64,000 bases of DNA from a virus (lineage: Duplodnaviria > Heunggongvirae > Uroviricota > Caudoviricetes): positions 18,999 to 82,998 of the IMG/VR virus record IMGVR_UViG_3300037882_002350; one strand, 5' to 3'. Every line of letters begins with the position of its first letter. Position 1 is the first letter of the stretch. The notes under the pieces are model-generated. The model saw nothing but the letters and a program-made list of their open reading frames with translations. It had not been told where the DNA came from and did no database searches. Of the stretch, positions 7,010 through 63,612 are shown piece by piece. The translations under genes and the position numbers were made by a program.

Positions 7010-8995
7010 TTAAGATGCTGGGAATCTAAGACCTACAACAGACTTAGCGTCTGGAATAATTTCATCAAAGCCAAGACGTTGGCTAGATACTAGCACAGTT
7101 CGCTGATTTTCAGTCTGGTATTCGCTTTCGATTGTCATACCACGTAGACGTGGAATTACGAAGTTACGACGATTTAGAGCAAGAGCAAAGTAGTTATTTG
7201 CACCTGCTGGAGCAAATTCATCACACATAATAACGGAAGAACCGTATAGACGTCCAACTTCACCTGTAAGCTTGTTTGCATTTTGTGCACCAACCAAATC
7301 AGCGTCAGCAAATTCAGGGTCTTCAATTAGCTGGAAGTACGCGTCTTGTGAAACGATATAAACTACATCACGAGGATCCAGACCGTATTTACCCATTGTC
7401 TTACGAAGACCAAACAAACCAGCGCCTGTAAGCTGTGTGCTCAAGCTTGCTGCTGTAACAGTACGGCTGTTAGTAGCTGCAAAATTTAGAAGACCTTTAG
7501 CTGCACCAGAAGTGTATACACCTTGGTTAGTGTTACCTGCAAGAAGCATGTTTTCAACACCTCGAGCATGGGTTCTTTGCATAGATTCTCTAATCAGAGG
7601 TAAAATAGGAAGAATTGCGTCTTCTTCTGTTTCATTACCTAGATAAGCTTTGGAAATCATCTTTACAGTGCTTAGAGTTTTCTCTGTAAGTGTGATACCA
7701 CCATAAGGTGAACCAAAAGCAGCTCCTCTAGCGTCAATGTTACCATTAGGCTGAGTTCCTGCAGCTGTTGTAGCAGAAGTAATTTCTGCGTATCCAGCGT
7801 CCGGCATGATTGGGAAAGTCATTTGAGCGCTGTTCATGTTAATCTCTCTAAATAGAGGAGCAAGAATTAAGCTATTCCAAATGTCTCTTTCAATATTAGT
7901 GCTGATAATTGTTTCAAGATTATCATTACCAGTGCTTACTGTTGAGTGTGTGTTAAACTTTTCTAGAACGCCTTGACCAAACTTAGTTGAGTCAATTCCG
8001 CCCTTACGAACAGCTTTTGCAAGAATGAAAGCGTCTTCTGCTTCACGCATCAAACCTTCATTTTTGAAAGGATCTGAAGTTTTATCGCTAAAGTTTCTTT
8101 TTGATTCTGTGAACGCTTTAAGTTCCGCACTCTTAGCTTCTAGATCATCTTTCATTTGAGCAATGGTCTTTTCCAAGTCTTCGTTGTTTGATTTTAGCTT
8201 ATCGCCAAATTCAGCAAGTAGTTTTTCTTCAAGACCTTTAGTTGCTGCTTGAGCAGCTACTTTAGTAGCTTCTACTGCGGCTTCTTTCTCTGCACGTTCT
8301 TTAGCAGCTTTTTCTTCTGCTTCTTTTTGCTCTTTCATTTTTTCTGCAAAAAGTTTTTCCGCTAGAGCCTTTACTTCTTCTTCATTCATTGTTTTATTCT
8401 CCGGAGGTACTTCAGTACCGGACTTGAGCGAGTCGATTTCTGAGTCTAATGCATTTACATTTTCTTCAGCAGAGTCATTCTGGCCCTTTAAAGCATTTGT
8501 TTCTATGTTAAATTTATTACGGTCTAAGTCGTTTTCAAAAGATTTGGAAACGCTAAAGACTGCTGCCTGATTACAAGGAACTGAAACAACCGATACTTCT
8601 AGTAATTCTGCGTCTCTAATAATGTAACCATCTGTTGTTTGGTTGTAGTCTGCATCTTTAATCATAAAACCTACAGAAAAAGTACTAAGTACTTCATCCT
8701 TAATTAGGCCATAAGTTTCTCCTGCAGATTTACTTATTTCACATTCAATTTTAAGACCTTGGGCATCTACTTCTAGTTTTGTTGCCCGTCCTATAGGTTT
8801 GCTGTAATTATGATTAAACAAGATTATGGGATTTTTTTGATAGTTTTCTAAACCACCTTTAACCCAAGCATCTGGAATAATTACATCACCTGCTCGGTCT
8901 GTATCGGCTGTGCTCGCATAACCTAATATCTTAAGTTTATCTCCATCTTCCGATATAGACTTAATACGAGATTCTAGTGTAAATTTACGAGCCAT
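7010..8995 (-). CDS. fused prohead protease - scaffold (delta-like) domain - HK97-fold major capsid protein
   Basis: 661 aa. The N-terminus (GYASTADTDRAGDVIIPDAW...) matches the HK97-family (S78) prohead serine protease. The middle is a Glu/Lys/Ala coiled coil (EEKAAKERAEKEAAVEATK). The C-terminal ~300 aa look like a capsid shell domain. It sits directly downstream of the portal. Confidence 0.6.
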   Translation of the reverse strand: MARKFTLESRIKSISEDGDKLKILGYASTADTDRAGDVIIPDAWVKGGLENYQKNPIILFNHNYSKPIGRATKLEVDAQGLKIECEISKSAGETYGLIKDEVLSTFSVGFMIKDADYNQTTDGYIIRDAELLEVSVVSVPCNQAAVFSVSKSFENDLDRNKFNIETNALKGQNDSAEENVNALDSEIDSLKSGTEVPPENKTMNEEEVKALAEKLFAEKMKEQKEAEEKAAKERAEKEAAVEATKVAAQAATKGLEEKLLAEFGDKLKSNNEDLEKTIAQMKDDLEAKSAELKAFTESKRNFSDKTSDPFKNEGLMREAEDAFILAKAVRKGGIDSTKFGQGVLEKFNTHSTVSTGNDNLETIISTNIERDIWNSLILAPLFREINMNSAQMTFPIMPDAGYAEITSATTAAGTQPNGNIDARGAAFGSPYGGITLTEKTLSTVKMISKAYLGNETEEDAILPILPLIRESMQRTHARGVENMLLAGNTNQGVYTSGAAKGLLNFAATNSRTVTAASLSTQLTGAGLFGLRKTMGKYGLDPRDVVYIVSQDAYFQLIEDPEFADADLVGAQNANKLTGEVGRLYGSSVIMCDEFAPAGANNYFALALNRRNFVIPRLRGMTIESEYQTENQRTVLVSSQRLGFDEIIPDAKSVVGLRFPAS

Positions 8996-18719: not shown

Positions 18720-19009
18720 GTAATCACCATTCTTATAGGGATAATTTTAAGAGTATCACGATTGTCCCATATTCTCAATTTAAAATTAAATTCACCTGCC
18801 GTTGTGGGTATTCCTGTAACTGTAAGTCCGGAAACTGACATACCTGTCGGTAGGGCACCTTCAAAAATGTCGACGGTGTAGGGCGCCTGAGCTCCGGTTG
18901 GAACAAGCGTTACAGTTGCGGTCGAGTTGGAGGGATAGGACGGATTTTGAGTTATACTGACTTGGAAAAGTCTAGCTCGTTTTCGTCGCAAAAGAAAGTT
19001 TCGTCTCAT
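18716..19009 (-). CDS. hypothetical structural protein (first gene of late leftward operon)
   Basis: 97-aa ORF. Its start codon lies 8 nt downstream of a TTGACA-N17-TATACT promoter, so the message is near-leaderless. Confidence 0.3.
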   Translation of the reverse strand: MRRNFLLRRKRARLFQVSITQNPSYPSNSTATVTLVPTGAQAPYTVDIFEGALPTGMSVSGLTVTGIPTTAGEFNFKLRIWDNRDTLKIIPIRMVIT

Positions 19010-46756: not shown

Positions 46757-47020
46757 ATGAGAGACAACGGAATTAACTTTGCTAATATTAATAAGGAACA
46801 ATCAGTGAATAAAAAATGCAAAAGACTTGGTAATACTGCAACCAAAAAAGAATTAGCGGAAGCACATCGCATTAAGATGGAAATGAAAATCTTAATGAAT
46901 GAACATAACCGAAAACAGCTGATAGATAATCCCGAATGGATTTATGCTAATATTAGTAAACATCACGAACACTACGGTGACACACCTAAAGAGCATGAGA
47001 AACGAAAACTAAAAATCTAA
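46757..47020 (+). CDS. hypothetical early protein
   Basis: 87-aa ORF. Confidence 0.3.
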   Translation: MRDNGINFANINKEQSVNKKCKRLGNTATKKELAEAHRIKMEMKILMNEHNRKQLIDNPEWIYANISKHHEHYGDTPKEHEKRKLKI

Positions 47021-47644
47021 TTCTAATACATCTTTGGTAAAAAGTTCCGTATTACCATCAGACTTAAGAAGTTTATCTGTAGATTTATATTCCTTAAATT
47101 TATTTAATATAAATTGCTCTCTTAACTTAGCCTCAAATCCGGTTTCAAAAGGTCTCTCCAAAAGAGTAATTATAGTAACATTTGATTTATCTTTTTTAAA
47201 TCTATAATCTACAGTATTATTGGTAATTCCTATTTTAAATCTAATTATATCATCTTTAATTATTTTAATGTAGTATAAAATACTTGGTAAATCGGGATTA
47301 AAGCCAGACCAATTACTAGAACAGATAGGGCAGCGAGTACCTGCCAATATATTAGCAGGTCTTGCTTTCCAAGTGTGCCCATCATTACATTTGTGCTCTA
47401 TAGGAAATGTTGAGCCTTTATAATCTTCTAAGACTTCGTAGCATATACGCTTATTTCGAAGTTTTCTGATATAAGAGTCTATAGAGTCCTTAGTATCTTT
47501 ACCTTTAATATTAAGTCTACAAGCTTTTTGAGCAACCCCACTTTCTGTACGTCCTAAAATTTCAGCACACTGATAGGCTCCTAAATTACTATAGTTTTCA
47601 GTTAAAAAGTTAATGTCCTCCTCGGACCATGATTTACCACCCAT
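47009..47644 (-). CDS. HTH plus zinc-finger plus T5orf172 (GIY-YIG-related) domain endonuclease-like protein
   Basis: N-terminus WSEEDINFLTENYSNLGAYQCAEILGRTESGVAQKACRL (HTH). C..H..C..CPIC zinc finger. ILYYIKIIKDDIIRFKIGIT matches the T5orf172-type core. It has its own leftward TTGACT-N17-TATACT promoter. Confidence 0.4.
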   Translation of the reverse strand: MGGKSWSEEDINFLTENYSNLGAYQCAEILGRTESGVAQKACRLNIKGKDTKDSIDSYIRKLRNKRICYEVLEDYKGSTFPIEHKCNDGHTWKARPANILAGTRCPICSSNWSGFNPDLPSILYYIKIIKDDIIRFKIGITNNTVDYRFKKDKSNVTIITLLERPFETGFEAKLREQFILNKFKEYKSTDKLLKSDGNTELFTKDVLELDF

Positions 47645-47705
47645 TTAATAAGTATAAAATAATTATAAGATAAAGTCAAGAACTATTTTTTCAGGGTGTG
47701 TAAAA

Positions 47706-47735
47706 TAACTCTTGACATTTAGTTAAAAGTATCGT
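47706..47735 (+). promoter_or_regulatory. sigma70-type promoter of the tmRNA-like gene
   Basis: TTGACA, 17 nt spacer, TAGTAT. Confidence 0.45.
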
Positions 47736-47741
47736 AGTATG

Positions 47742-48300
47742 CAAACATAGTTGTTGATAAAGGACAATAAAAGTGAACAGGACGCGGAGGGCAGCACTCC
47801 GCCGCCTCCACCATTAAATCTACCTAGGTATTTAAGGGACCGAAAGCGTAGAGCCAGCAGCCTTAACTGCAAACAACACGCCAACCTCATAAGTTGGAAT
47901 CGGGGCTTGGCTTCCCCCACTTGTCGGGTGACAGGTTAGTGTAAGGCGTTGGTAGATTTATTGATGGGGGCGAAATAGGATCGACTGGCGCAGAATAGGA
48001 AATTAGTAGACTATTGACTAGCAAAGTGCTAAAATCGTTAAATGCAAATGACAACGAAAACACTGTGGAGTATGCGCTAGCCGCATAATTTAACGGGGAT
48101 TGGCCCACCTGGCAACATAACGGGCTAACATCTTTAAGAACCGGGATGCAACAGCTATAAGTAAGTATATGAAAACCTTGAGAAAGGCATTTCAATATGA
48201 CTAGTAATATACTGAACGAAAAGTGGTGCTGAAATTAATAAAGTAGCTAATTATTAAGGGGTTCGACTCCCTGCATAACGGCTCTTAAAGATGTAGTTTT
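47742..48300 (+). ncRNA. ssrA: circularly permuted (two-piece) tmRNA-like gene: acceptor piece then coding piece with tag ORF
   Basis: Acceptor piece at 47780-47813 is GGACGCGGAG-ggcagca-CTCCGC-CGCCTCC-A-CCA; compare the E. coli tmRNA 3' end GGACGCGGGTTCAACTCCCGCCAGCTCCACCA. At 47966-47986, GGGGGCGAAATAGGATCGAC is complementary to CGCCTCC; compare the E. coli 5' end GGGGCTGATTCTGGATTCGAC. Tag reading frame 48044-48088: GCA AAT GAC AAC GAA AAC ACT GTG GAG TAT GCG CTA GCC GCA TAA = ANDNENTVEYALAA*. Confidence 0.65.
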
Positions 48301-48358
48301 ATTTTAACCTGTATAGGTATAGTTAGGTTATGTTTAAAAACATTTCCTCGGAGAAATC

Positions 48359-48907
48359 ATGTTTGAAGCTTTTAAAGCGTTATCAATAGGAACCAAGTTA
48401 GGTATAGCTTTTGGTTTTATCGTATTATTGTTAAGTATAGTAGGCTCTACGGCCTATGTTTCCTATAATAAAGGTTTAAATGTTTCTAAATTAGAAATAC
48501 AGAGTTATAAAGCAGATGTAGCTAATCTAAACTCAAGATTAAAAACCGCACAAGGAAAAGTTGATGTCAAAGTTATTACGGAATATAAAGATCGTATTAA
48601 CTATGTAGATAGAGTGACTTATAAAACAAAGACTGTAGTTGAAACTATAATTAAAGACAATATGGTTCCTCAATTCAATCTGTCTAAAGGTTGGATATAT
48701 GTGTATAATCAATCCGCTCTAGGGCTTGAGGTTGACCCTGTTCTTGCAGCAGATTCAACACCATCAACAGTAACAGAAATGCAAGCCTTAGCAGACACAA
48801 TTGTGCCAAATAACGGAAGATACCTTTCCGTTAAGGCCCAACTTGAAGCACTTCAAAGTTGGGTAACGAATACGGAGAAATCACATGAAAAAGTTATTAA
48901 TAATTAG
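48359..48907 (+). CDS. i-spanin-like protein (N-terminal TM anchor plus periplasmic coiled coil)
   Basis: 182 aa. TM helix IAFGFIVLLLSIVGSTAYV followed by a coiled-coil-like region. The next gene is a small lipoprotein that overlaps its 3' end. Confidence 0.35.
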   Translation: MFEAFKALSIGTKLGIAFGFIVLLLSIVGSTAYVSYNKGLNVSKLEIQSYKADVANLNSRLKTAQGKVDVKVITEYKDRINYVDRVTYKTKTVVETIIKDNMVPQFNLSKGWIYVYNQSALGLEVDPVLAADSTPSTVTEMQALADTIVPNNGRYLSVKAQLEALQSWVTNTEKSHEKVINN

Positions 48908-49056
48908 TCTTTTAGCTTTGGCCGCTTGTTCTTCACCTAAAATAGGCGAGCCTACAATAGAATTACCTAAAGCGCCAGCAGCTTTAATGATACCACCGCA
49001 AAATCTAGAACCTATCAAGGAAGAAAAAGTTGAAAACAATAACAAAGACGATTGAA
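48884..49056 (+). CDS. o-spanin-like small lipoprotein
   Basis: 57 aa. MKKLLIISLLALAACSS (lipobox LAAC), Pro-rich. Its start is embedded in the end of the preceding gene. Confidence 0.35.
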
Positions 49057-51168: not shown

Positions 51169-51855
51169 ATGTTACAATTATATACACCAAATACAATTCC
51201 ATTTTGGACAGAAGACGAAATCGAATTTAGAGAACTTTTTCAAGCACGAGTAGTAACTCGTATTAAACAGACTCTCACAGATATGAATAAAGCTTGGCGT
51301 TTTCATCGAATCGAAGGTCCTTGCCTGTCCCCTAGATATAAAATTGGTAATAGTTATGATGATAGTGATATTTTTGTCACTAATCATAAAGTAGAGTCTG
51401 ATTTTTTATGTCTAAGGGCAGAAACAACGCCATCTAGTTATGAATATGCGAGATTTTTAAACAAACAGCAATTACCTTTATGTGTATGGCAATCTGGTAA
51501 AAGTTTTCGCCGTGAAGTTAATGATGGTGCAACAGCTGCGAAACTTCGTTTCAATGAATTCTATCAATTAGAGTTTCAGTGTATTTATAGTAACACAACA
51601 AAAGCGGATTATAGATCAGCCCTTATTGATGCCGTTGAACAAGAGATTGAACGGTTCACTCAATGTAAAACTCGAGTTGTAGAAAGTGATAGACTTCCTT
51701 TATATTCGGATAGTACTCTAGATATTGAAGTTTATTTAAATAACGAATGGCGAGAGATAGCTTCTTGCTCCATTCGTAATGACTTTTCCGAAAATACGAA
51801 AGTTGCCGAGATCGCTATTGGCCTAGATCGTGTTGTGATAGCGAGTGATATTTAA
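51169..51855 (+). CDS. class II aminoacyl-tRNA synthetase-like catalytic core (class IIb-like, truncated)
   Basis: Motif 2-like KSFRREVNDGATAAKLRFNEFYQLEFQ (fRxE...R..EF.Q.E). Motif 3-like AEIAIGLDRVVIASDI (GxGxDR). Only 228 aa, with no anticodon-binding domain. Confidence 0.4.
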   Translation: MLQLYTPNTIPFWTEDEIEFRELFQARVVTRIKQTLTDMNKAWRFHRIEGPCLSPRYKIGNSYDDSDIFVTNHKVESDFLCLRAETTPSSYEYARFLNKQQLPLCVWQSGKSFRREVNDGATAAKLRFNEFYQLEFQCIYSNTTKADYRSALIDAVEQEIERFTQCKTRVVESDRLPLYSDSTLDIEVYLNNEWREIASCSIRNDFSENTKVAEIAIGLDRVVIASDI

Positions 51856-52636: not shown

Positions 52637-53260
52637 ATGAATAAAATAGAATTTATAGAAGCGATGTTAAAAAATCGCAAATTGAACCCCGAAGACCTTG
52701 TTAGAAAAAAGTATCGCACTGTTCCTAATATCACGGCTTTTAGTTTATTTGAGTCCATCTTTGAAAGAGAAAATGTCAGAGCCATTGCAGCCTACTATGG
52801 AGTGGGTATAAATACAATTAACCGGTTAATGAAAACTCTATTTCCAGATGTTACCATAAAAGGAGGCTCTAGGACTTGGAGATATTATTTACTAGATATT
52901 TTGCGACACAAAATGTGTACAGATTGTGAAGTAATCAAGTCGAAAGAAGAATTTTATATAGGAAATGTAACAGAATTACGTTCTACATGTAAAAGCTGTG
53001 ATGTAGAACGAGCAGCCAAAAGAAGAGCAAAAATATTAAAAGCTACTGATATAGATTCTAGTTTAGATATAATTCAGACAATTTATGCAAATTGCCCAAA
53101 AGGTTATCATGTTGACCATATCATACCTTTAGATAAAGGAGGTAGACATCATCAAAATAATTTATGTTATTTATCTGCTACCGATAATCTACATAAAAGT
53201 AATAAATTACCGGAAATGATACCTGATATAATGGCAAGAGCTATATATCCTAAAATATAA
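52637..53260 (+). CDS. HNH homing endonuclease
   Basis: C-terminal CPKGYHVDHIIPLDKGGRHHQNNLCYLSATDNLHKSNK. Paralogue of 62801..63481. Leaderless: the ATG is 7 nt after a TAAAAT -10. Confidence 0.6.
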   Translation: MNKIEFIEAMLKNRKLNPEDLVRKKYRTVPNITAFSLFESIFERENVRAIAAYYGVGINTINRLMKTLFPDVTIKGGSRTWRYYLLDILRHKMCTDCEVIKSKEEFYIGNVTELRSTCKSCDVERAAKRRAKILKATDIDSSLDIIQTIYANCPKGYHVDHIIPLDKGGRHHQNNLCYLSATDNLHKSNKLPEMIPDIMARAIYPKI

Positions 53261-54705: not shown

Positions 54706-54769
54706 TGTTATAGGGTAGAGTCAAAAATTGATCTTGACTCTGCCCTTTTTCTTTGCTATAAGGATTGTA

Positions 54770-55324
54770 ATGAATTTATTCTTTCTCGATCATGATTTAG
54801 ACAAATGCGCTGAATATCACATAGATAAACATGTAGGTAAAATGCAACTTGAGGCCGCACAGTTAATGTCAACAACATTATGGGTGGATAAGCTTTTCGG
54901 ATTTGTACCTAGAAAACTGGATGCGGATCAACTAAGTGAACTTAGATTAGCAATGTCTAGTGAGCCGGTAATTGAAGAACGTAAATTTTTGCGTTATCTT
55001 GCTACACATCCTAATCATCCTTGTGCTGTGTGGGTTCGCTCTAGCTTAGATAATTTTATTTGGACGCACTGTTACGTTAACGCATTAAACAGTGAAAGCG
55101 TGTGGCGAGGTAATAAGCCCCACGCTTCTTGCGTCGAAGTGAACAAAATGCCGGAGCCATTAAGTCTTCCGAGCCTAGGACTTACCGCCTTTGCATTAGC
55201 AATGCCGGATGAATATAAAACTGCTGATGCTGTTATATCTTATCGCACATATTATAAAAATGATAAAGCTAATATAGCTTCATGGAAACGTAGAGAACAA
55301 CCGGAGTGGTGGAATGACTATTGA
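54770..55324 (+). CDS. hypothetical early protein
   Basis: Internal-ATG form of ORF 54728..55324, starting MNLFFLDHDLDKCAEY immediately after a TTGACT..TATAAG promoter. Confidence 0.35.
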   Translation: MNLFFLDHDLDKCAEYHIDKHVGKMQLEAAQLMSTTLWVDKLFGFVPRKLDADQLSELRLAMSSEPVIEERKFLRYLATHPNHPCAVWVRSSLDNFIWTHCYVNALNSESVWRGNKPHASCVEVNKMPEPLSLPSLGLTAFALAMPDEYKTADAVISYRTYYKNDKANIASWKRREQPEWWNDY

Positions 55325-56522: not shown

Positions 56523-57179
56523 ATGAGCTGTAAATTAATTTCTGTAACCCATCCGGTTATTCCTGAATGTGAAACGGCTGAAGATTTAATTGCCTATATT
56601 GCTCGCGTTAGCAATCCAGCTAATCAAGTAAATAAGGAGACAAGTTCAAAGCTCCTTAAGTATTTGATTAAGAACAATCACTGGTCTCCTTTTGAGCAGG
56701 TGTCACTAACAATTGAAATTGTTACAACTAGGGACATTGGAAGACAAATTCTTAGACACCGTAGTTTTGTATTCCAAGAATTTAGTCAACGCTATGCAGA
56801 AGCGACAGAATTCCACGACGGACGTGAGGCACGGCTTCAAGATAATAAAAATCGTCAAAACTCTATAGAAACAGATGACGGAGATTTGCAACGTTGGTGG
56901 AATACGTGGCAAAATTATGTTAAAGGCGAATCAGAAAAAATCTACAAGCTTGCTCTACAAAGAGGTATAGCTAAAGAACAGGCTCGCGCAGTACTGCCAG
57001 AAGGTCTTACTATGTCTAGAATGTACATGACTGGTAATCTTCGTAATTGGATTCATTATTGCCAATTACGCACAGGTAACGGAACTCAAAAAGAACATGC
57101 AGAAATTGCTAAAGCTTGTTGGGACATTGTAAAAGAAGAATTCCCTAGTTTAGAGGATTTATTTGATAATGATTGTTGA
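56523..57179 (+). CDS. thyX: flavin-dependent thymidylate synthase
   Basis: ThyX signature RHRSFVFQEFSQRY (RHRx7-8S). Size 218 aa. Confidence 0.7.
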   Translation: MSCKLISVTHPVIPECETAEDLIAYIARVSNPANQVNKETSSKLLKYLIKNNHWSPFEQVSLTIEIVTTRDIGRQILRHRSFVFQEFSQRYAEATEFHDGREARLQDNKNRQNSIETDDGDLQRWWNTWQNYVKGESEKIYKLALQRGIAKEQARAVLPEGLTMSRMYMTGNLRNWIHYCQLRTGNGTQKEHAEIAKACWDIVKEEFPSLEDLFDNDC

Positions 57180-59021: not shown

Positions 59022-59097
59022 GCTCGGTTCGACTTCTGGTGAGGCCACCCTCCTTACAAGTGGGTTAAGATGGGTTCAATTCCCATACCGAGTACCA
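59022..59097 (+). tRNA. tRNA-Val(TAC)-like
   Basis: Acceptor GCTCGGT/ACCGAGT (G1-U72), anticodon arm CCCTC-cTTACaa-GTGGG, T-arm ATGGG-TTCAATT-CCCAT, discriminator A, encoded CCA. The D-stem is weak. Confidence 0.45.
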
Positions 59098-59621
59098 GTT
59101 TTCTAGTAGGTGAGAACCGCTACCTCACACACCTTTCATGCCATATGAAGGTACAATAGCCTTGGTTGCCTATATGGAGACCGCTCCAAGGTGAAGAGAT
59201 CGTACTTTGCAATACGACTAGAAAATATAGGGATGGCTGTCATTCCTTCTACCGCTTAGAGCGGGGTAAAGCCTTTAAATAACCGTATAAGGGGTGGCAT
59301 AACTTGTAGTTCTTAAGTGAACCGTGGCGATCACGATAGCTTCGCACGCATGTCTACTAAGCGTAATATGGTTCGGACGGACTGTAGATAAAAAGCGACC
59401 GTACAGGGAAACCAAATTAGGTCGCTTTAACCGGCCCCGTTATCCAACGTAAATGGACTTCCTTGTGAAAACAAGGAAAGACCTCACCTAGGTGGTCTAA
59501 AAACAGGATCTAGTGTCGCGGAAAAATGGTCAATTCGCGTAGATAAAATAACCACGTGAAGGTACGCACTCGAAGACCTTCTAGTCGTGTGGGCGACGAT
59601 AATACCCACTTAGTTTTATGT

Positions 59622-59695
59622 GCTTCCATCCTCTAATGGTAAGAGACCCGCCTGATTAGCGGTGAATCGGAGTTCGAATCTCTGTGGAAGTACCA
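59622..59695 (+). tRNA. tRNA-Ile(GAT)
   Basis: Acceptor GCTTCCA/TGGAAGT, D-arm CTCT-AATGGTA-AGAG, anticodon loop CTGATTA, T-arm CGGAG-TTCGAAT-CTCTG, then A-CCA. Confidence 0.6.
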
Positions 59696-59698
59696 TAT

Positions 59699-59775
59699 TC
59701 CCCGAAGTGCAAATTGGTATAGCAGCACGGCTTTGAACCGTGTGCTTGTGGGTTCGAAACCCACGCGGGGATCCA
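59699..59775 (+). tRNA. tRNA-Gln(TTG)
   Basis: Acceptor TCCCCGA/GCGGGGA (one mismatch), anticodon arm CACGG-cTTTGaa-CCGTG, T-arm GTGGG-TTCGAAA-CCCAC, then T-CCA. Confidence 0.55.
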
Positions 59776-59783
59776 AATTTAAT

Positions 59784-59873
59784 GGAAGGTTAAGTCAGCA
59801 GGTGCTGGCCTCTGTCTTGAAAACAGATGGTACACGAAGGTGTATGGGGATCGAGACCGCCGGCCTTCCTCCA
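59784..59873 (+). tRNA. type-II tRNA-Ser(TGA)-like
   Basis: Acceptor GGAAGGT/GCCTTCC, anticodon arm TCTGT-cTTGAaa-ACAGA, long variable arm, CCA encoded. I could not fold the T-arm cleanly. Confidence 0.4.
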
Positions 59874-59905
59874 AAAACAACGCTGCATGGTGCGCCCAGC
59901 AGCCT

Positions 59906-59931
59906 CCTCACCGCTACGGCGGTGAGGTTTT
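59906..59931 (+). terminator. intrinsic terminator
   Basis: CCTCACCGC-tac-GGCGGTGAGG followed by TTTT. Confidence 0.5.
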
Positions 59932-60081
59932 AACAAGGAATATATGTTTAACTATTTAGCACAATCTAATACTATAAAACCTCATCTGGGGTTATTTTGT
60001 GCGCATGGCAGGTCGTTTGGTGACGACGGGGGTCTCATAAGCCTCTAGAATTGATTCGATTTCAATACCTGCTACCATTGC

Positions 60082-60115
60082 GCCACGGTTCTAAATGAAT
60101 TTCGTGGCTTTTTTA
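60082..60115 (+). terminator. possible intrinsic terminator
   Basis: GCCACG...CGTGGC followed by TTTTTTATT. The loop is long, at 15 nt. Confidence 0.35.
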
Positions 60116-60337
60116 TTGGAAATAAAATGAAAATTCTTAAAATTACACCTGTACAGTCTTATATTGTAAAAACAGATGATAAAGAGTGGCCTTACTATAG
60201 AACGGACGGTAAAGGCAACTGGGAAAATCAAATAGGTGAGTCTTGGGAAGGCATCTACGATGTGGACGATGAATTAGAAAAAGCCGTTTCTGAATTTCTT
60301 TCTTGACTTTCAACCTGTTTGCATTTATAACAGATAA

Positions 60338-60562
60338 ATGATGACAAAAGAAGAAGAATATGAGCGATTTATTGAAGACCGTGATATGGCGGAGTCGAAC
60401 CTAGAATCTTTAAACGAAGAGATTCGACATCTAGAAATGTCTATGGATAAGTTTGAACTAACAGAAGAGTGGAATTCACTATTCAATGAAATAACAGTTC
60501 TAGAAAGCCGGGTGAATTATTTAAATTCTTGGATTGATGCAGAAATGGACGAGTTTGCTTAG
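60338..60562 (+). CDS. hypothetical acidic coiled-coil protein
   Basis: 74-aa ORF after promoter TTGACT..TATAAC. Its last 16 nt overlap the tRNA-like element at 60547. Confidence 0.35.
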   Translation: MMTKEEEYERFIEDRDMAESNLESLNEEIRHLEMSMDKFELTEEWNSLFNEITVLESRVNYLNSWIDAEMDEFA

Positions 60563-60635
60563 TAGGCCGAAAGCACCGGGCTCTTAATCCGAACGCGAAA
60601 GCGCACCGTGGGTTCGAATCCCACCTCGTCCTCCA
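60547..60635 (+). tRNA. atypical tRNA-like element (type-II-like, anticodon CTT as read)
   Basis: Acceptor GGACGAG/CTCGTCC, T-arm GTGGG-TTCGAAT-CCCAC, T-CCA encoded, variable hairpin CGCGAAAGCG. The D-loop is long and the anticodon stem irregular. Confidence 0.3.
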
Positions 60636-60654
60636 GTTTATAGAAAGTTTCTAC

Positions 60655-60975
60655 ATGCAAATACGGCATCGTCGTTTGGAAGACCGCTTGTGGGTAGAAG
60701 CTATTATAGATAACAGAGTAATAGCTTGGGCTTCTTTTGTTCTTAATGAGAAAAAATACTTATGGTCTGCTTCGACATTTGTAGAGCCTAAATATCGCAG
60801 AGCAAAAGTAGCTAAACAGATTTATATGTATGCACATAATTTAGGGTATGAAATACGACCTTCGGGTCTTCAAACAGATGCCGGCAGGCTCATGTGGAAA
60901 TCCTTTAAAAAACAGAGACTACCATTTGCAAAGTTAAATATATTTGAACGAATAATATATAAAGTCTTAGGTTAA
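60655..60975 (+). CDS. small GNAT-like hypothetical protein
   Basis: 106-aa ORF. VEPKYRRAKVAKQIYMYAHNLGYEI weakly resembles GNAT motif A. Confidence 0.25.
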   Translation: MQIRHRRLEDRLWVEAIIDNRVIAWASFVLNEKKYLWSASTFVEPKYRRAKVAKQIYMYAHNLGYEIRPSGLQTDAGRLMWKSFKKQRLPFAKLNIFERIIYKVLG

Positions 60976-61010
60976 GTCCTAAGCTATGGCCGAAATTGAA
61001 CAGTTCATAT

Positions 61011-61087
61011 GGACCGGTAGTTCAATAGGCTGAACGACGGGCTTTTAATCCGTGCGCATGCGGGTTCGAACCCCACCCGGTCTACCA
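61011..61087 (+). tRNA. tRNA-Lys(TTT)
   Basis: Acceptor GGACCGG/CCGGTCT (G1-U72), D-arm GTTC-AATAGGCT-GAAC, anticodon arm ACGGG-cTTTTaa-TCCGT, T-arm GCGGG-TTCGAAC-CCCAC, then A-CCA. Confidence 0.6.
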
Positions 61088-61234
61088 GTTTAAAAAGACA
61101 AAGGCACAGCATAACTAATACTAGTTAAACATAAGTTATATTAGGTAATTCCTAATTGCACGGCTTATTAACAGAATTAATTACTCAAGTTAATAATCTA
61201 GGTAGCTTTGTGCCACCAATCAAAAAAACAGTTC

Positions 61235-61263
61235 TTGACTTCCAAGGCTGTTTTATGTATAAT
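61235..61263 (+). promoter_or_regulatory. consensus early promoter upstream of a 250-nt leader and tRNA-Pro
   Basis: TTGACT (61235-40), 17 nt spacer, TATAAT (61258-63), then GAGTTATCAAGAG. Confidence 0.55.
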
Positions 61264-61525
61264 GAGTTATCAAGAGCAGAGAGGATCATTTTGCGTTAAC
61301 AGAGTTAATACTCGGTGAAGTAATCAACTTTTTAAATGTTCTGATAAGCTATGCCAAACTAGCGTCGCAAGACGAAGTAAGGCATAAACTCTAGCCCACG
61401 AGTATAAATTGAGCGGGCTGCACAATCCGTTGGATGTTCCGTGCAGGGCTGGGAGAGGGACGGGACTCCTTGCACTAGGGTATCTAAGGAAGATTTAATT
61501 TTAGCACAGCCGCTAAAGCCTACAT

Positions 61526-61602
<77 letters not shown>

Positions 61603-61773
61603 GTTTATGTTGGGTGGGCACAGTCCCTACGAAGTCATCGGTGAGGTTACACCATGCGCCCGACGCCAAGTTTAGCTACGCAAACACTAGTAGGTCAATG
61701 AAAGTGTGGGCTTATGGTGCAGGAGGTATGATGTTGACTCGAATACCACAATACACCGCTAATTAAATTTATG

Positions 61774-61828
61774 TCGAGATTCCCTGGGGGTAAGTGCACA
61801 TAGGCGGTTCGAATCCGTGTCTCGACTC
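61774..61828 (+). pseudogene. truncated tRNA-like fragment (acceptor stem plus T-arm only)
   Basis: GTCGAGA ... GGCGG-TTCGAAT-CCGTG-TCTCGAC. Only about 21 nt lie between the acceptor and the T-arm, and there is no CCA. Confidence 0.25.
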
Positions 61829-61930
61829 TAAGTTTCTCATAACTGAACCAAGTAGACTAGTAAACGCTTGGCAGAAGTTTATGTAGAGGAGAGCCGCGTG
61901 GGGCTAAGTAAAGTACCACGAATTTTAAAT

Positions 61931-62005
61931 GCGTGCGTGGCGTAATCGGTAACGTGACAGGCTTCCAACCTGTAGTCGAGGGTTCGATTCCCTCCGTATG
62001 CTCCA
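61931..62005 (+). tRNA. tRNA-Gly(TCC)
   Basis: Acceptor GCGTGCG/CGTATGC (two G-U pairs), anticodon arm ACAGG-cTTCCaa-CCTGT, T-arm GAGGG-TTCGATT-CCCTC, then T-CCA. Confidence 0.6.
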
Positions 62006-62041
62006 AATTCCGAGACATTCTGTCTCAACTTAGGAGAAACA

Positions 62042-62527
62042 ATGAAACTATTTACAATCGCAGCACTAGCTGCTGCCCTCGTAACGACACCAGCTCTTTC
62101 GCGAACTAATGAGAATTTTACCGGAGTCCGAGCAGAAGTAACGGCGGGTGTTAATGATGTTACTAATAGCCCTGATGTAAACGATGTTGTATATGGAGCA
62201 GCTATTGGCGTAGATGTACCTGTTAGTGACCGATTTACATTTGGTGTAGAAGCAAATACGAGCAATGTATTTGAAGATGAACGCCAAATTGGTGCTAGTA
62301 TGCGTATTGGTTACGCACTTAATAAACAATTTCTTGGCTACGTGAAAGGCGGTTATAACAATTATAATAATGTCTTTTCTCAAAAACTAGACGGTGCTAC
62401 AGCAGGTGCCGGTGTAGAGTTCAGCATTAGTGATAATAGCTATGTGAAAGCAGAATATAATTATACTGATTTTCAAGCTAATACAGGAAGCCACGCGGCA
62501 CTTATTGGTGTGGGACTTCGATTTTAA
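62042..62527 (+). CDS. outer-membrane beta-barrel protein (Lom/Ail/OmpX-like)
   Basis: Signal peptide MKLFTIAALAAALVTTPALS. Alternating amphipathic beta strands. Aromatic C-terminus ...ALIGVGLRF. 161 aa, RBS aggagaaacaATG. Confidence 0.55.
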   Translation: MKLFTIAALAAALVTTPALSRTNENFTGVRAEVTAGVNDVTNSPDVNDVVYGAAIGVDVPVSDRFTFGVEANTSNVFEDERQIGASMRIGYALNKQFLGYVKGGYNNYNNVFSQKLDGATAGAGVEFSISDNSYVKAEYNYTDFQANTGSHAALIGVGLRF

Positions 62528-62676
62528 TAAGGTACTGGTCTCTCATAGAACCTGGTTGCGTTCGCGACGCACATTATGATAAGCGGTGACTTTCAGCTTA
62601 TCAAATTCATAAGTGACCCTCGGTCAGCGCAGCTTATGACGTTTTCGGGTATCGAATAACCCGCCAGATTTTATAT

Positions 62677-62753
62677 GCCTGCGTAGTCCAACGGTAGGAG
62701 ACAACACGCTTAGAACGTGAACAGTGTCAGTTCGAATCTGACCGTAGGTACCA
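62677..62753 (+). tRNA. tRNA with anticodon TAG (Leu by anticodon) but a short type-I variable loop
   Basis: Acceptor GCCTGCG/CGTAGGT, anticodon arm CACG-cTTAGaa-CGTG, T-arm GTCAG-TTCGAAT-CTGAC, then A-CCA. Confidence 0.5.
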
Positions 62754-62764
62754 AAATTTAATTC

Positions 62765-62793
62765 TTGACTTTCGACCTCCAAATTGCTATAAT
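62765..62793 (+). promoter_or_regulatory. consensus early promoter (leaderless HNH gene)
   Basis: TTGACT (62765-70), 17 nt spacer, TATAAT (62788-93). The ATG at 62801 lies 7 nt downstream. Confidence 0.5.
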
Positions 62794-62800
62794 TTGGCAT

Positions 62801-63481
62801 ATGGAAGAAAAAATAAAAGAAAATTTTTATCAAAAATTACAAATTGATCGCAAAGCGGAGTTTGTGTCTAAATGGGGAGTTAAACCTGCAATTACAATAG
62901 AGAATCTTATAGATGCTTTATGGTTGTTTGAAACAGGTCCTAAAGCTATAGAATTTTTAGGTCGATCTCCTCAAAGTTTTAATAGAAATATAAAAAAACT
63001 ATTTCCAAATGTACAGTTACAAGGAGGTGGACAAACATGGAAGCATTGGCTTATAAGTCAATCAGACTATAAGCGGTGTTGTACTTGTAATAATTTTAAG
63101 TTAAAAATTGATTTTAATAAAGAAAAATCTCGCTACGATAATTTAAGTTCAAAATGCAGAGACTGTGCCAAAGATAGCAGTGCTGAAAACTATAAAAATA
63201 ATCAAAGTTACTTTATAGAATATCGTGCAACTCATGATTCAGAACAACGAGCACGCACAGCTAAAAGAAGAGCAGCGAAATTACAGAGAACTCCCAAATG
63301 GGCTGATCTCAAAGCCATTCAATTAGTATATAAGCTATGCCCTGAAGGTTATCATGTAGATCATATTTATCCTTTGCAAGGGGAGTTTGTTTCTGGATTA
63401 CATGTCGAGAATAACTTACAATATTTAACTGAAAAAGAAAATCTTAAAAAGGGCAATAAGATGCCTGAATTTATTTCTTGA
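62801..63481 (+). CDS. HNH homing endonuclease
   Basis: C-terminal CPEGYHVDHIYPL...HVENNLQYLTEKENLKKGNK. Paralogue of 52637..53260. The listed ORF 62765..63481 starts inside the promoter. Confidence 0.55.
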   Translation: MEEKIKENFYQKLQIDRKAEFVSKWGVKPAITIENLIDALWLFETGPKAIEFLGRSPQSFNRNIKKLFPNVQLQGGGQTWKHWLISQSDYKRCCTCNNFKLKIDFNKEKSRYDNLSSKCRDCAKDSSAENYKNNQSYFIEYRATHDSEQRARTAKRRAAKLQRTPKWADLKAIQLVYKLCPEGYHVDHIYPLQGEFVSGLHVENNLQYLTEKENLKKGNKMPEFIS

Positions 63482-63525
63482 CTTTGAAGCCCTAAACGAA
63501 TATAATGGCTTTATTAAGAGACAAT

Positions 63526-63612
63526 GGGGTTGTGGCGAAACTGGTTATACGCGCGAGACTTAAAATCTTGTGGATTTATTCCGTGTGGGTTCGAGTCCCA
63601 TCTTCCCTACCA
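63526..63612 (+). tRNA. type-II tRNA-Leu(TAA)-like
   Basis: Anticodon arm CGAGA-cTTAAaa-TCTTG, long variable hairpin GGATTTATCC, T-arm GTGGG-TTCGAGT-CCCAT, A-CCA encoded. The acceptor GGGGTTG/CTTCCCT has two U-U mismatches. It is fed directly by promoter 63478-63506. Confidence 0.45.

Follow-up and report, generated by a model that had tools for sequence, protein, structure and literature searches.

The 64,000-nt stretch of viral DNA analyzed here (the window: positions 18,999 to 82,998 of the IMG/VR record IMGVR_UViG_3300037882_002350, Caudoviricetes) contains a gene-free interval of 714 nt (47645–48358), bounded by a minus-strand HNH-like endonuclease gene and a plus-strand gene for a 182-aa protein, in which lies a predicted circularly permuted, two-piece transfer-messenger RNA (tmRNA) gene, or ssrA. 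A preliminary description of this DNA had placed the locus in a non-coding stretch of 560 nt, shorter than the interval measured, and had drawn attention to three tmRNA motifs, all of which are present in the sequence as described: the 3' acceptor segment GGACGCGGAG-GGCAGCA-CTCCGC-CGCCTCC-A-CCA (47780–47813), the 5' acceptor segment GGGGGCG-AAATAGG-ATCGAC (47966–47985; the end first given for it, 47986, is one base too far), and a 14-residue tag reading frame at 48044–48088. It had also claimed a sigma-70 promoter, which the promoter scan recovered, and a permuted gene order, which is what we observe: the CCA ends at 47813, upstream of the first base of the 5' acceptor strand (G1) at 47966, and both lie on the same strand.

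From 5' to 3' on the plus strand, the locus consists of a sigma-70-type promoter (47712–47740), an acceptor piece of ~67 nt (47747–47813) delimited by Rfam alignments, folds and covariation of the T-stem and acceptor stem among related phages, an intervening segment of 152 nt (47814–47965), presumably lost on processing, that is an insertion relative to both matching Rfam models, and the core of a coding piece (47966–48128). The latter is defined by Rfam alignments, a two-piece co-fold, the alignment and pair counts of the phage lineage, and comparisons of a hairpin and of the helix in its second pseudoknot (PK2) region; it includes the tag frame, read directly from the sequence and by ARAGORN run at a 90% threshold (-ps90). 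The part matching tmRNA models ends near 48128–48130, and a structured 3' extension with a terminator-like U-run follows (48128–48305), recognized by its fold z-score and by comparison with relatives. The promoter comprises a −35 element TTGACA (47712–47717), a 17-nt spacer and a −10 element TAGTAT (47735–47740), with 10 of 12 matches to the sigma-70 consensus. The pattern TCTTGAC-17 nt-TAGTAT, with ATAGTY ~8 nt further on, is kept upstream of the gene in the window and in three related contigs described below (L166, L167, and L175), and transcription would start near 47747, 7 nt past the −10 element and at the start of the conserved ATAGTY motif.

Two covariance models cover the locus over their full lengths in an Rfam scan of the 64-kb window at curated thresholds: RF01849 (alpha_tmRNA; 89.2 bits, E = 7.7e-23, gathering score 50) aligns to 47708–48130 through model positions 1–355 of 355, and RF04321 (tmRNA_permuted; 89.1 bits, E = 8.6e-16, gathering score 47) aligns to 47749–48088 through positions 1–213 of 213. 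These E-values exclude a chance origin of the match, and scores above both gathering thresholds bear out the assignment of the locus to two-piece tmRNAs of the alphaproteobacterial type, for which the preliminary description had proposed just such a covariance check. About 43 positions that RF01849 expects after the stop codon are deleted in the window gene.

The tRNA-like domain can be traced strand by strand. In the acceptor piece, the 5' strand of helix P2a (AUAGUU, 47747–47752) and a P2-proximal strand (CAG, 47778–47780) precede a 6-bp T-stem (GCGGAG, 47784–47789, with CUCCGC, 47797–47802) closing the T-loop GGCAGCA (47790–47796), after which come the acceptor 3' strand CGCCUCC (47803–47809), the discriminator A47810 and an encoded CCA (47811–47813). 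In the coding piece, the acceptor 5' strand GGGGGCG (47966–47972) is directly followed by the D-loop analogue AAAUAGGAUCGAC (47973–47985), the P2-proximal strand CUG (47985–47987) and the P2a 3' strand GACUAU (48009–48014). The 7-bp acceptor helix GGGGGCG/CGCCUCC that had been postulated, with folding as its proposed check, is present both in the unconstrained minimum-energy fold of the precursor and in the two-piece co-fold, and the T-arm forms too. Its third pair is G3·U70 (G47968 with U47807), the identity element for alanine, and the D-loop analogue would provide the face of this domain to which SmpB binds. A duplex-energy test of the intermolecular P2 pairing was non-discriminating, genuine bacterial genes likewise scoring z near 0 against shuffles. 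A small hairpin past the P2a strand of the acceptor piece, conserved by eye, was not consistently predicted and is not claimed.

In the coding piece, the resume codon GCA (48044–48046), preceded by UAAAU, opens a run of 14 codons encoding ANDNENTVEYALAA and ending with the stop UAA (48086–48088). This is the tag of the preliminary description, and ARAGORN at -ps90 gives the same one. It fits the family pattern ANDN...ALAA that dominates among at least 120 related IMG/VR loci. The end of the tag sequence forms a hairpin (UGCG, 48073–48076, with CGCA, 48082–48085) that covaries at synonymous sites in relatives, and a second covarying hairpin (UAGCA/UGCUA, 48019–48023 and 48027–48031) occupies the first pseudoknot (PK1) region. 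Beyond the stop codon, the PK2-region helix UUGGCCC (48100–48106)/GGGCUAA (48122–48128), which covaries as well, closes the loop ACCUGGCAACAUAAC. The second stem of the PK1 and PK2 regions is short or indistinct, pseudoknots being outside the folding methods used. For the PK2 loop, a strict regular expression matched only 14 of 163 loci and direct alignment was used instead.

Conservation in a lineage of distantly T5-like phages provides evidence of another kind. Eight members from independent samples (the window, L166, L167/L168, L171/L172, L173, L174, L175/L176, and L180), the relatives having been reached only via protein-database matches and the contigs carrying them, possess a tmRNA gene at the same syntenic site upstream of an i-spanin gene; a permuted tmRNA occurs in every contig with enough upstream sequence, with RF04321 scores of 67–109 bits. 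The i-spanin homologues in these metagenome assemblies are only 43–65% identical, and the shared synteny includes dUTPase, small open reading frames (ORFs), i-spanin, a nicotinamide mononucleotide (NMN) adenylyltransferase/Nudix gene, and NadV. By two downstream proteins, no close relatives were found in the IMG/VR search for related loci.

For seven members, the spacers were taken out and the acceptor and coding pieces aligned. Because the PK1 region and, in the window, the PK2 helix are out of register in this alignment, pair counts were restricted to well-aligned helices. Over 30 core pairs, 93.3% of cells are paired, as against 40–51% in slid controls, and 16 pairs show changes on both sides, compared with 5.2±1.8 in shuffles, none of 500 of which reached 16. 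Independently of Rfam, RNAalifold recovers P2a, the T-stem, the acceptor stem, the tag-end hairpin, and the PK2-region helix. It also proposed a long-range helix (columns 119–124 with 154–159), which depends on a misaligned region and is at odds with the local hairpin, and which was not used. P2a (AUAGUU/GACUAU) is kept in all members, the P2-proximal CAG/CUG shows double changes, the T-stem covaries, and in the acceptor stem the third pair is G·U throughout, with covariation at two others. In L180, compensatory changes are found both in P2a (AUUGUC/GACAUU) and in the hairpin that precedes the tag (UGGCA/UGCCA).

The tags of the lineage vary within the family pattern (ANDNVAFEDLREAA, ANDNDVSVEFALAA, ANDNEVAFALAA, ANDNDVEVALAA, VAANDNEVAYALAA, and VNDNEIEVSLAA). 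Two of them, VAANDNEVAYALAA and VNDNEIEVSLAA, start with a GUC codon, and ARAGORN reads both likewise: in L171, L173, and L175, GUC (Val) replaces GCN (Ala) directly after the conserved UAAAU, which implies a non-alanine resume codon. Synteny, compensatory changes, and family-pattern tags across the lineage, with a promoter kept in four members, together amount to strong evidence that the tmRNA gene is under selection in these phages.

What we observe directly is that the RNA belongs to the tmRNA family, has its structural elements and a promoter, and is conserved, with compensatory changes, in a phage lineage; with these observations in hand, we consider it very probable that the locus is a functional alpha-type circularly permuted ssrA of a lytic, distantly T5-like phage. 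Several results weigh against this prediction. ARAGORN, which had been suggested as a check, calls no tmRNA at the locus with default settings, the gene lying below the default threshold; at the 90% threshold it reports a permuted tmRNA at 47720–48179 with the identical tag. With the spacer cut from 152 to 20 nt, the gene still escaped detection at default, so the length of the spacer is not the cause of the miss. In PK1, a hairpin is all that could be recognized of a classical pseudoknot. In the middle of P2, most of the pairs drawn by the Rfam model do not form in the window sequence. Position 6 of the T-loop is a C (GGCAGCA, compared with GGCRGUA in the alpha type), a position occupied by U in every registered IMG/VR loop and in 41 of the 42 bacterial genes; the only other C is found in L151, an Inquilinaceae chromosome. 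With E. coli SmpB as query, tblastn detected no SmpB-like frame in the 64-kb window (best E = 3.8), a search that covered all but ~19 kb of the 83-kb source contig, and compatibility of the RNA with the SmpB, alanyl-tRNA synthetase (AlaRS), and RNase P of the host is an assumption of the prediction.

The ARAGORN result extends to other viruses. At default, the program misses the window gene, four of the eight lineage members and, among the IMG/VR matches listed, 39 of 120 related viral loci, and RF04321 finds the window and all seven other lineage members. Because so many genes found by RF04321 are missed, the frequencies of phage tmRNAs that have been published from ARAGORN searches are likely to be too low.

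T-loops switch within the lineage: L166, L171, L174, and L175 display between them the alpha-type GGCAGUA, tRNA-type UUCGAUU and UUCGACU, and the further forms CUCAUUC and AGCGUUA. The rest of the tRNA-like domain is conserved while these loops vary.

The spacer separating the two pieces is closed by a perfect 10-bp helix (UAAAUCUACC, 47815–47824, with GGUAGAUUUA, 47951–47960) that starts 1 nt after the CCA and ends 5 nt before G1, leaving a 5-nt leader UUGAU (47961–47965). A closing helix of 9–11 bp is present in six of seven lineage members, with a different sequence in each, and the interiors of their spacers are unrelated. We rejected the possibility that the spacer is a functional RNA in itself: it matches no Rfam family, its overall fold is no more stable than shuffles (z = −0.91), and the spacers of relatives show no similarity. 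Since its interior lacks a family match, stability and similarity alike, only the closing helix of the spacer is supported. An acceptor-CCA motif lies upstream of the 5' core in 117 of the 121 copies examined (120 loci among the IMG/VR matches listed, plus the window), at a distance of 3–499 nt (median 79), and the 152-nt spacer is thus ordinary among viral copies. Pairing between leader and trailer has been proposed to serve processing of permuted tmRNA genes (PMC3985003), and a helix-closed spacer would fit, by analogy, such a pairing that lets tRNA-processing enzymes act.

The 3' extension (~170 nt) is strongly structured: none of 200 shuffles of 48125–48300 was as stable (z = −4.65). An outer 12-bp stem (ACAUCUUUAAGA, 48128–48139, with UCUUAAAGAUGU, 48283–48294) encloses inner stems and a T-arm-like hairpin GGGGUUCGACUCCCU (48258–48272), which overlaps a weak 13-nt match to the T-arm of RF00023 (48259–48271), and the terminator-like U-run UUUUAUUUU lies at 48297–48305. 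The extension as such matches no Rfam family and has no blastn match among the at least 120 IMG/VR loci. L166 and L167 have a comparable long stem of ~20 bp, capped by GGGKUACGAACUCU, directly after PK2; L171, L174, L175, and L180 have no extension and end right after PK2. In several relatives, an ORF of 195–232 aa with no Pfam match intervenes between the tmRNA and i-spanin genes (L171 4345–5001; L172; L173 4399–5001; L169 112–810; L180 1896–2504). No ORF is called in this gap in the window, L166, and L167, where the structured extension is found instead, and L174 and L175 fit neither pattern. The extension could be a terminator and 3' stabilizer, a processing site, or a regulatory module, and there is a precedent for an added RNA module in the glutamine riboswitch located in the 3' part of the ssrA of phage Melnitz (PMC9004378).

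Sequences of the same type are widespread. The 20-mer at the 5' end of the coding piece (GGGGGCGAAATAGGATCGAC, acceptor strand plus D-loop analogue) occurs exactly in at least 120 IMG/VR contigs and in many alphaproteobacterial genomes, and the 34-mer of the T-arm and acceptor has no exact match in viral contigs, metagenome contigs, or the genomes of 185,579 bacterial species. The 6-bp variant of the T-stem was encountered only in Alphaproteobacteria (Methylobacterium, Dongia, Sphingomonadales, Zymomonas, Inquilinaceae, and others). An alpha-type permuted T-arm on a contig of a metagenome-assembled genome (MAG) labelled Terriglobia (L138, DATLJB010000116.1) is identical to that of a Dongiaceae MAG of the same series (L125), and the Terriglobia label is probably a binning error. 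By a relaxed search of annotated phages, we found the same core in Melnitz, Mesorhizobium phage Cp1R7A-A1, Rhodobacter phages, DSS3P8-like roseophages, and Sphingobium phage Lacusarx; in GenBank, the two-piece gene is annotated as ssrA in DSS3_MAL1 and Lacusarx.

The rarity that the preliminary description attributed to permuted phage tmRNAs was thus overstated. In addition to these two annotated genes and the at least 120 IMG/VR contigs, a 2021 survey found 53 of 133 unique phage tmRNAs to be two-piece, the majority of them from marine or aquatic phages (PMC9004378). Mycobacteriophages and Bacillus phage G have been recognized as tmRNA carriers for a long time (PMC4131195), and a 2025 tmRNA database lists 79 phage sequences (PMC11915505). 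No report of a tmRNA in T5-like phages was noticed among the papers that a text search listed.

Compared with Caulobacter crescentus and the other alphaproteobacterial tmRNAs of RF01849, the window gene shares the permuted order, an acceptor helix of 7 bp that is assembled in trans and contains G3·U70, the D-loop analogue AAAUAGGAUCGAC, a T-loop resembling the GGCRGUA type, an ANDN...ALAA tag starting from GCA, and a post-tag helix closing a CAACAGAA-like loop. It differs from them in being phage-encoded, in the C at T-loop position 6, in its unpaired central P2, in a spacer of 152 nt (8–90 nt in 42 bacterial genes), in the absence of ~43 nt after the stop codon, and in its additional 170-nt structured 3' extension. 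An alpha-type permuted ssrA is also carried by Methylophilales phage Melnitz, where it lies behind an early promoter and bears its riboswitch in the 3' part (PMC9004378), by pelagimyophages, by DSS3_MAL1 and its relatives, where it lies (in DSS3_MAL1) within a tRNA gene cluster, by Lacusarx, and by the Rhodobacter and Mesorhizobium phages; the lineage of the window is unrelated to these cultured phages and differs by its spanin neighborhood and by an extension with no Rfam family. Bxz1-like mycobacteriophages, Bacillus phage G, and mycobacteriophage DS6A likewise encode a component of trans-translation, but the Bxz1-like and phage G genes have the standard order and the DS6A molecule, limited to a tRNA-like domain, has no tag (PMC4131195), whereas the window gene is permuted and complete. 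With the one-piece tmRNA of E. coli (RF00023) it has in common the acceptor/T-arm architecture and a tag ending in ...YALAA, but its order is permuted, its T-loop resembles the alpha type, and RF00023 matches only the 13 nt in the 3' extension. Two-piece phage tmRNAs are therefore a known kind to which the window adds one more case; what is modestly new is the T5-like uncultured carrier, the U→C change in the T-loop, the helix-closed spacer, the 3' extension, and the number of such genes missed by ARAGORN.

The genome around the gene is that of a phage. The window encodes a large terminase, a portal protein, a head protease/major head protein, a major tail protein, NAD salvage enzymes, and a T5 A1-type DNA transfer protein (phrog_1745, E = 5.8e-152), and its proteins are at most 40–45% identical to those of T5-like Klebsiella and Vibrio phages. 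Among 50,697 phage records, the only nucleotide matches are short tRNA-Pro stretches (87–98% identity), and the tmRNA locus itself has no match. Low protein identity and nucleotide matches confined to tRNA-Pro lead us to assign the carrier, as far as its sequence tells, to a distant and uncultured T5-like phage. The T5-like early region named in the preliminary description belongs to a distantly T5-like genome, visible in the A1, terminase, portal, and head/tail genes and a cluster of nine tRNA genes. T5-like phages are lytic. As phage genes lie on both sides, the tmRNA gene is internal to the phage genome and does not belong to a host flank.

The 182-aa protein encoded directly downstream (48359–48907, plus strand) has an N-terminal transmembrane segment and a tblastn match to the i-spanin/o-spanin region of Burkholderia phage Mana, which identifies it as an i-spanin; its gene is overlapped by that of a putative o-spanin (48885–49055, plus strand), a 56-aa lipoprotein with the lipobox LAAC. 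Because of this i-spanin/o-spanin pair, lysis genes lie directly downstream of the tmRNA gene. On the other side, the HNH-like, homing-type endonuclease gene (47009–47644, minus strand; phrog_681, DUF4379 treble-clef) is divergent from the tmRNA promoter. It is not found at this position in L166–L174, and L175 has a DUF4379 protein downstream. A second homing-endonuclease-like gene, with an HNH domain, lies at 52637–53260 (plus strand). In two relatives, a homologue of ribosomal protein S21 (PF01165) is encoded on the minus strand a few kilobases upstream of the tmRNA gene (L167 2225–2425; L171 1689–1880).

Farther along the plus strand, 3 kb past the tmRNA gene and 7 kb short of the tRNA cluster, a gene for a stand-alone 228-aa protein (51169–51855) has the class II aminoacyl-tRNA-synthetase catalytic core (Pfam tRNA-synt_2b, 3.7e-10; tRNA-synt_2d, 1.7e-7). 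This protein shows weak NCBIfam matches, far below cut-offs, to GlyRS, SerRS, HisRS, HisZ, and SrmL, and neither a PHROG match nor a match to an anticodon-binding domain was found for it. The nine tRNA genes (59022–63612, plus strand) are Val-UAC, Ile-GAU, Gln-UUG, Lys-CUU, Lys-UUU, Pro-UGG, Gly-UCC, Leu-UAG, and Leu-UAA. Most have a U at the wobble position and hence read A-ending codons, a set that would be appropriate for an AT-rich phage (~38% GC) infecting a host of higher GC content. Over 50–59 nt, the tRNA-Pro is 98% identical to that of Rhizobium phages and to the corresponding stretch of Agrobacterium phage Atu_ph07.

Two further plus-strand genes, for ThyX (56523–57179) and for a phrog_624 "DNA binding protein" (54728–55324), have homologues (55–62% and ~35% identical, respectively) in the neighborhood of alpha-type permuted tmRNA genes on many unrelated IMG/VR contigs, a proximity that probably reflects a synteny shared by aquatic phages rather than a functional link. 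An apparently fused protease/capsid gene (7010–8995, minus strand) encodes 661 aa, matching a head maturation protease at residues 8–266 and major head protein families beyond. The tmRNA type, the tRNAs, and the hosts of cultured phages with this type hint at an alphaproteobacterial, possibly GC-rich host, although host inference from tmRNA type can fail, as Melnitz shows (PMC9004378).

We infer that the gene is transcribed, processed, charged, used with SmpB, and of benefit to the phage, and its features suggest how this might proceed. From its own sigma-70 promoter, a single precursor of ~560 nt would be made, in which the intervening segment would fold back by its 10-bp helix and place the CCA end at 47813 beside G47966, atop the 7-bp acceptor helix. 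After cleavage on the 5' side of G47966 by host RNase P and trimming back to the encoded CCA by host enzymes acting on 3' ends, two RNAs would remain, an acceptor piece of ~67 nt and a coding piece measuring at least 163 nt, joined by the acceptor helix and by P2 (AUAGUU/GACUAU and CAG/CUG). A two-piece tmRNA is functional in Caulobacter, where RNase P and tRNase Z presumably process the precursor (reviewed in PMC3985003). Once charged by host AlaRS via G3·U70, the RNA, accompanied by host SmpB and EF-Tu, would be admitted to non-stop ribosomes that have stalled, and translation restarting at GCA 48044 would append ANDNENTVEYALAA, whose final ALAA would be recognized by proteases, and the ribosome would be freed with the truncated protein marked for degradation. 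The phage would thereby probably sustain ribosome-rescue capacity during infection, when the host ssrA may be destroyed or silenced and truncated mRNAs accumulate, and a benefit against stalling caused by defense nucleases or host shut-off is a reasonable expectation.

Other explanations of the locus have to be weighed against a working ribosome-rescue RNA. The phage RNA might be a decoy or inhibitor that titrates host SmpB, AlaRS, or ribosomes, and so blocks or redirects trans-translation in the host. Such a role has been suggested for the molecule of mycobacteriophage DS6A that consists of a tRNA-like domain only (PMC4131195), a similar molecule inhibits tmRNA (PMC11915505), and the U→C change in the T-loop of the window, together with the wide variation of T-loops in the lineage, could alter function. 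A pure decoy, however, would have no need of the full mRNA-like part that all eight members conserve, with its resume context UAAAU/C-G, in-frame tags ending in AA, stop codon, tag-end hairpin, PK2 helix, and compensatory changes, and conservation of this whole part makes the decoy improbable. A recent capture from a host, now decaying or neutral and with no role for the phage, would account for the alphaproteobacterial sequence type and the rare T-loop substitution, and the homing-type endonuclease gene directly upstream (47009–47644) could have mobilized the DNA. Nevertheless, the T-arm/acceptor sequence is in none of the genomes of the 185,579 bacterial species, and the gene is syntenic in eight phage contigs divergent enough for their i-spanins to be only 43–65% identical. 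Because of this synteny, the compensatory changes, and the gene's own conserved promoter, we regard a decaying passenger as very improbable.

Since tmRNA genes are frequent integration sites, fragments of which are found in prophages (PMC4131195, PMC9004378), the locus might also be the attachment-site remnant of a temperate element that integrated into ssrA. Neither piece is truncated, promoter, tag, and PK2 are all present, we saw no integrase near the gene, and the gene sits amid phage genes of a T5-like genome, at the same position in relatives; its completeness and phage context exclude an attachment-site fragment for practical purposes. A reading that goes further than functional ribosome rescue, unlikely in our view yet deserving of mention, is that of a phage-tuned rescue device, in which the 3' extension and the helix-closed spacers would constitute a new RNA module for expression, processing, or stability, by analogy with the glutamine riboswitch on the Melnitz ssrA, and in which turnover of the T-loop could be an escape from host factors or defenses that recognize tmRNA. 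If this were true, the phage tmRNA gene would be a counter-defense against RNA-cleaving immunity.

For functional ribosome rescue, which we prefer, the implications are more immediate. Permuted phage tmRNAs can escape ARAGORN at default settings and yet match the Rfam model tmRNA_permuted, a lesson for annotation. With its various T-loops, its Val resume codons, its different spacer lengths, and its 3' extension, the lineage offers a set of natural variants for studying the processing and function of two-piece tmRNAs. Finally, since the gene is conserved in the lineage and kept by compensatory evolution, this well-supported phage tmRNA under selection indicates that a ribosome-rescue RNA can be a stable part of the early program of a lytic phage and not an accident.

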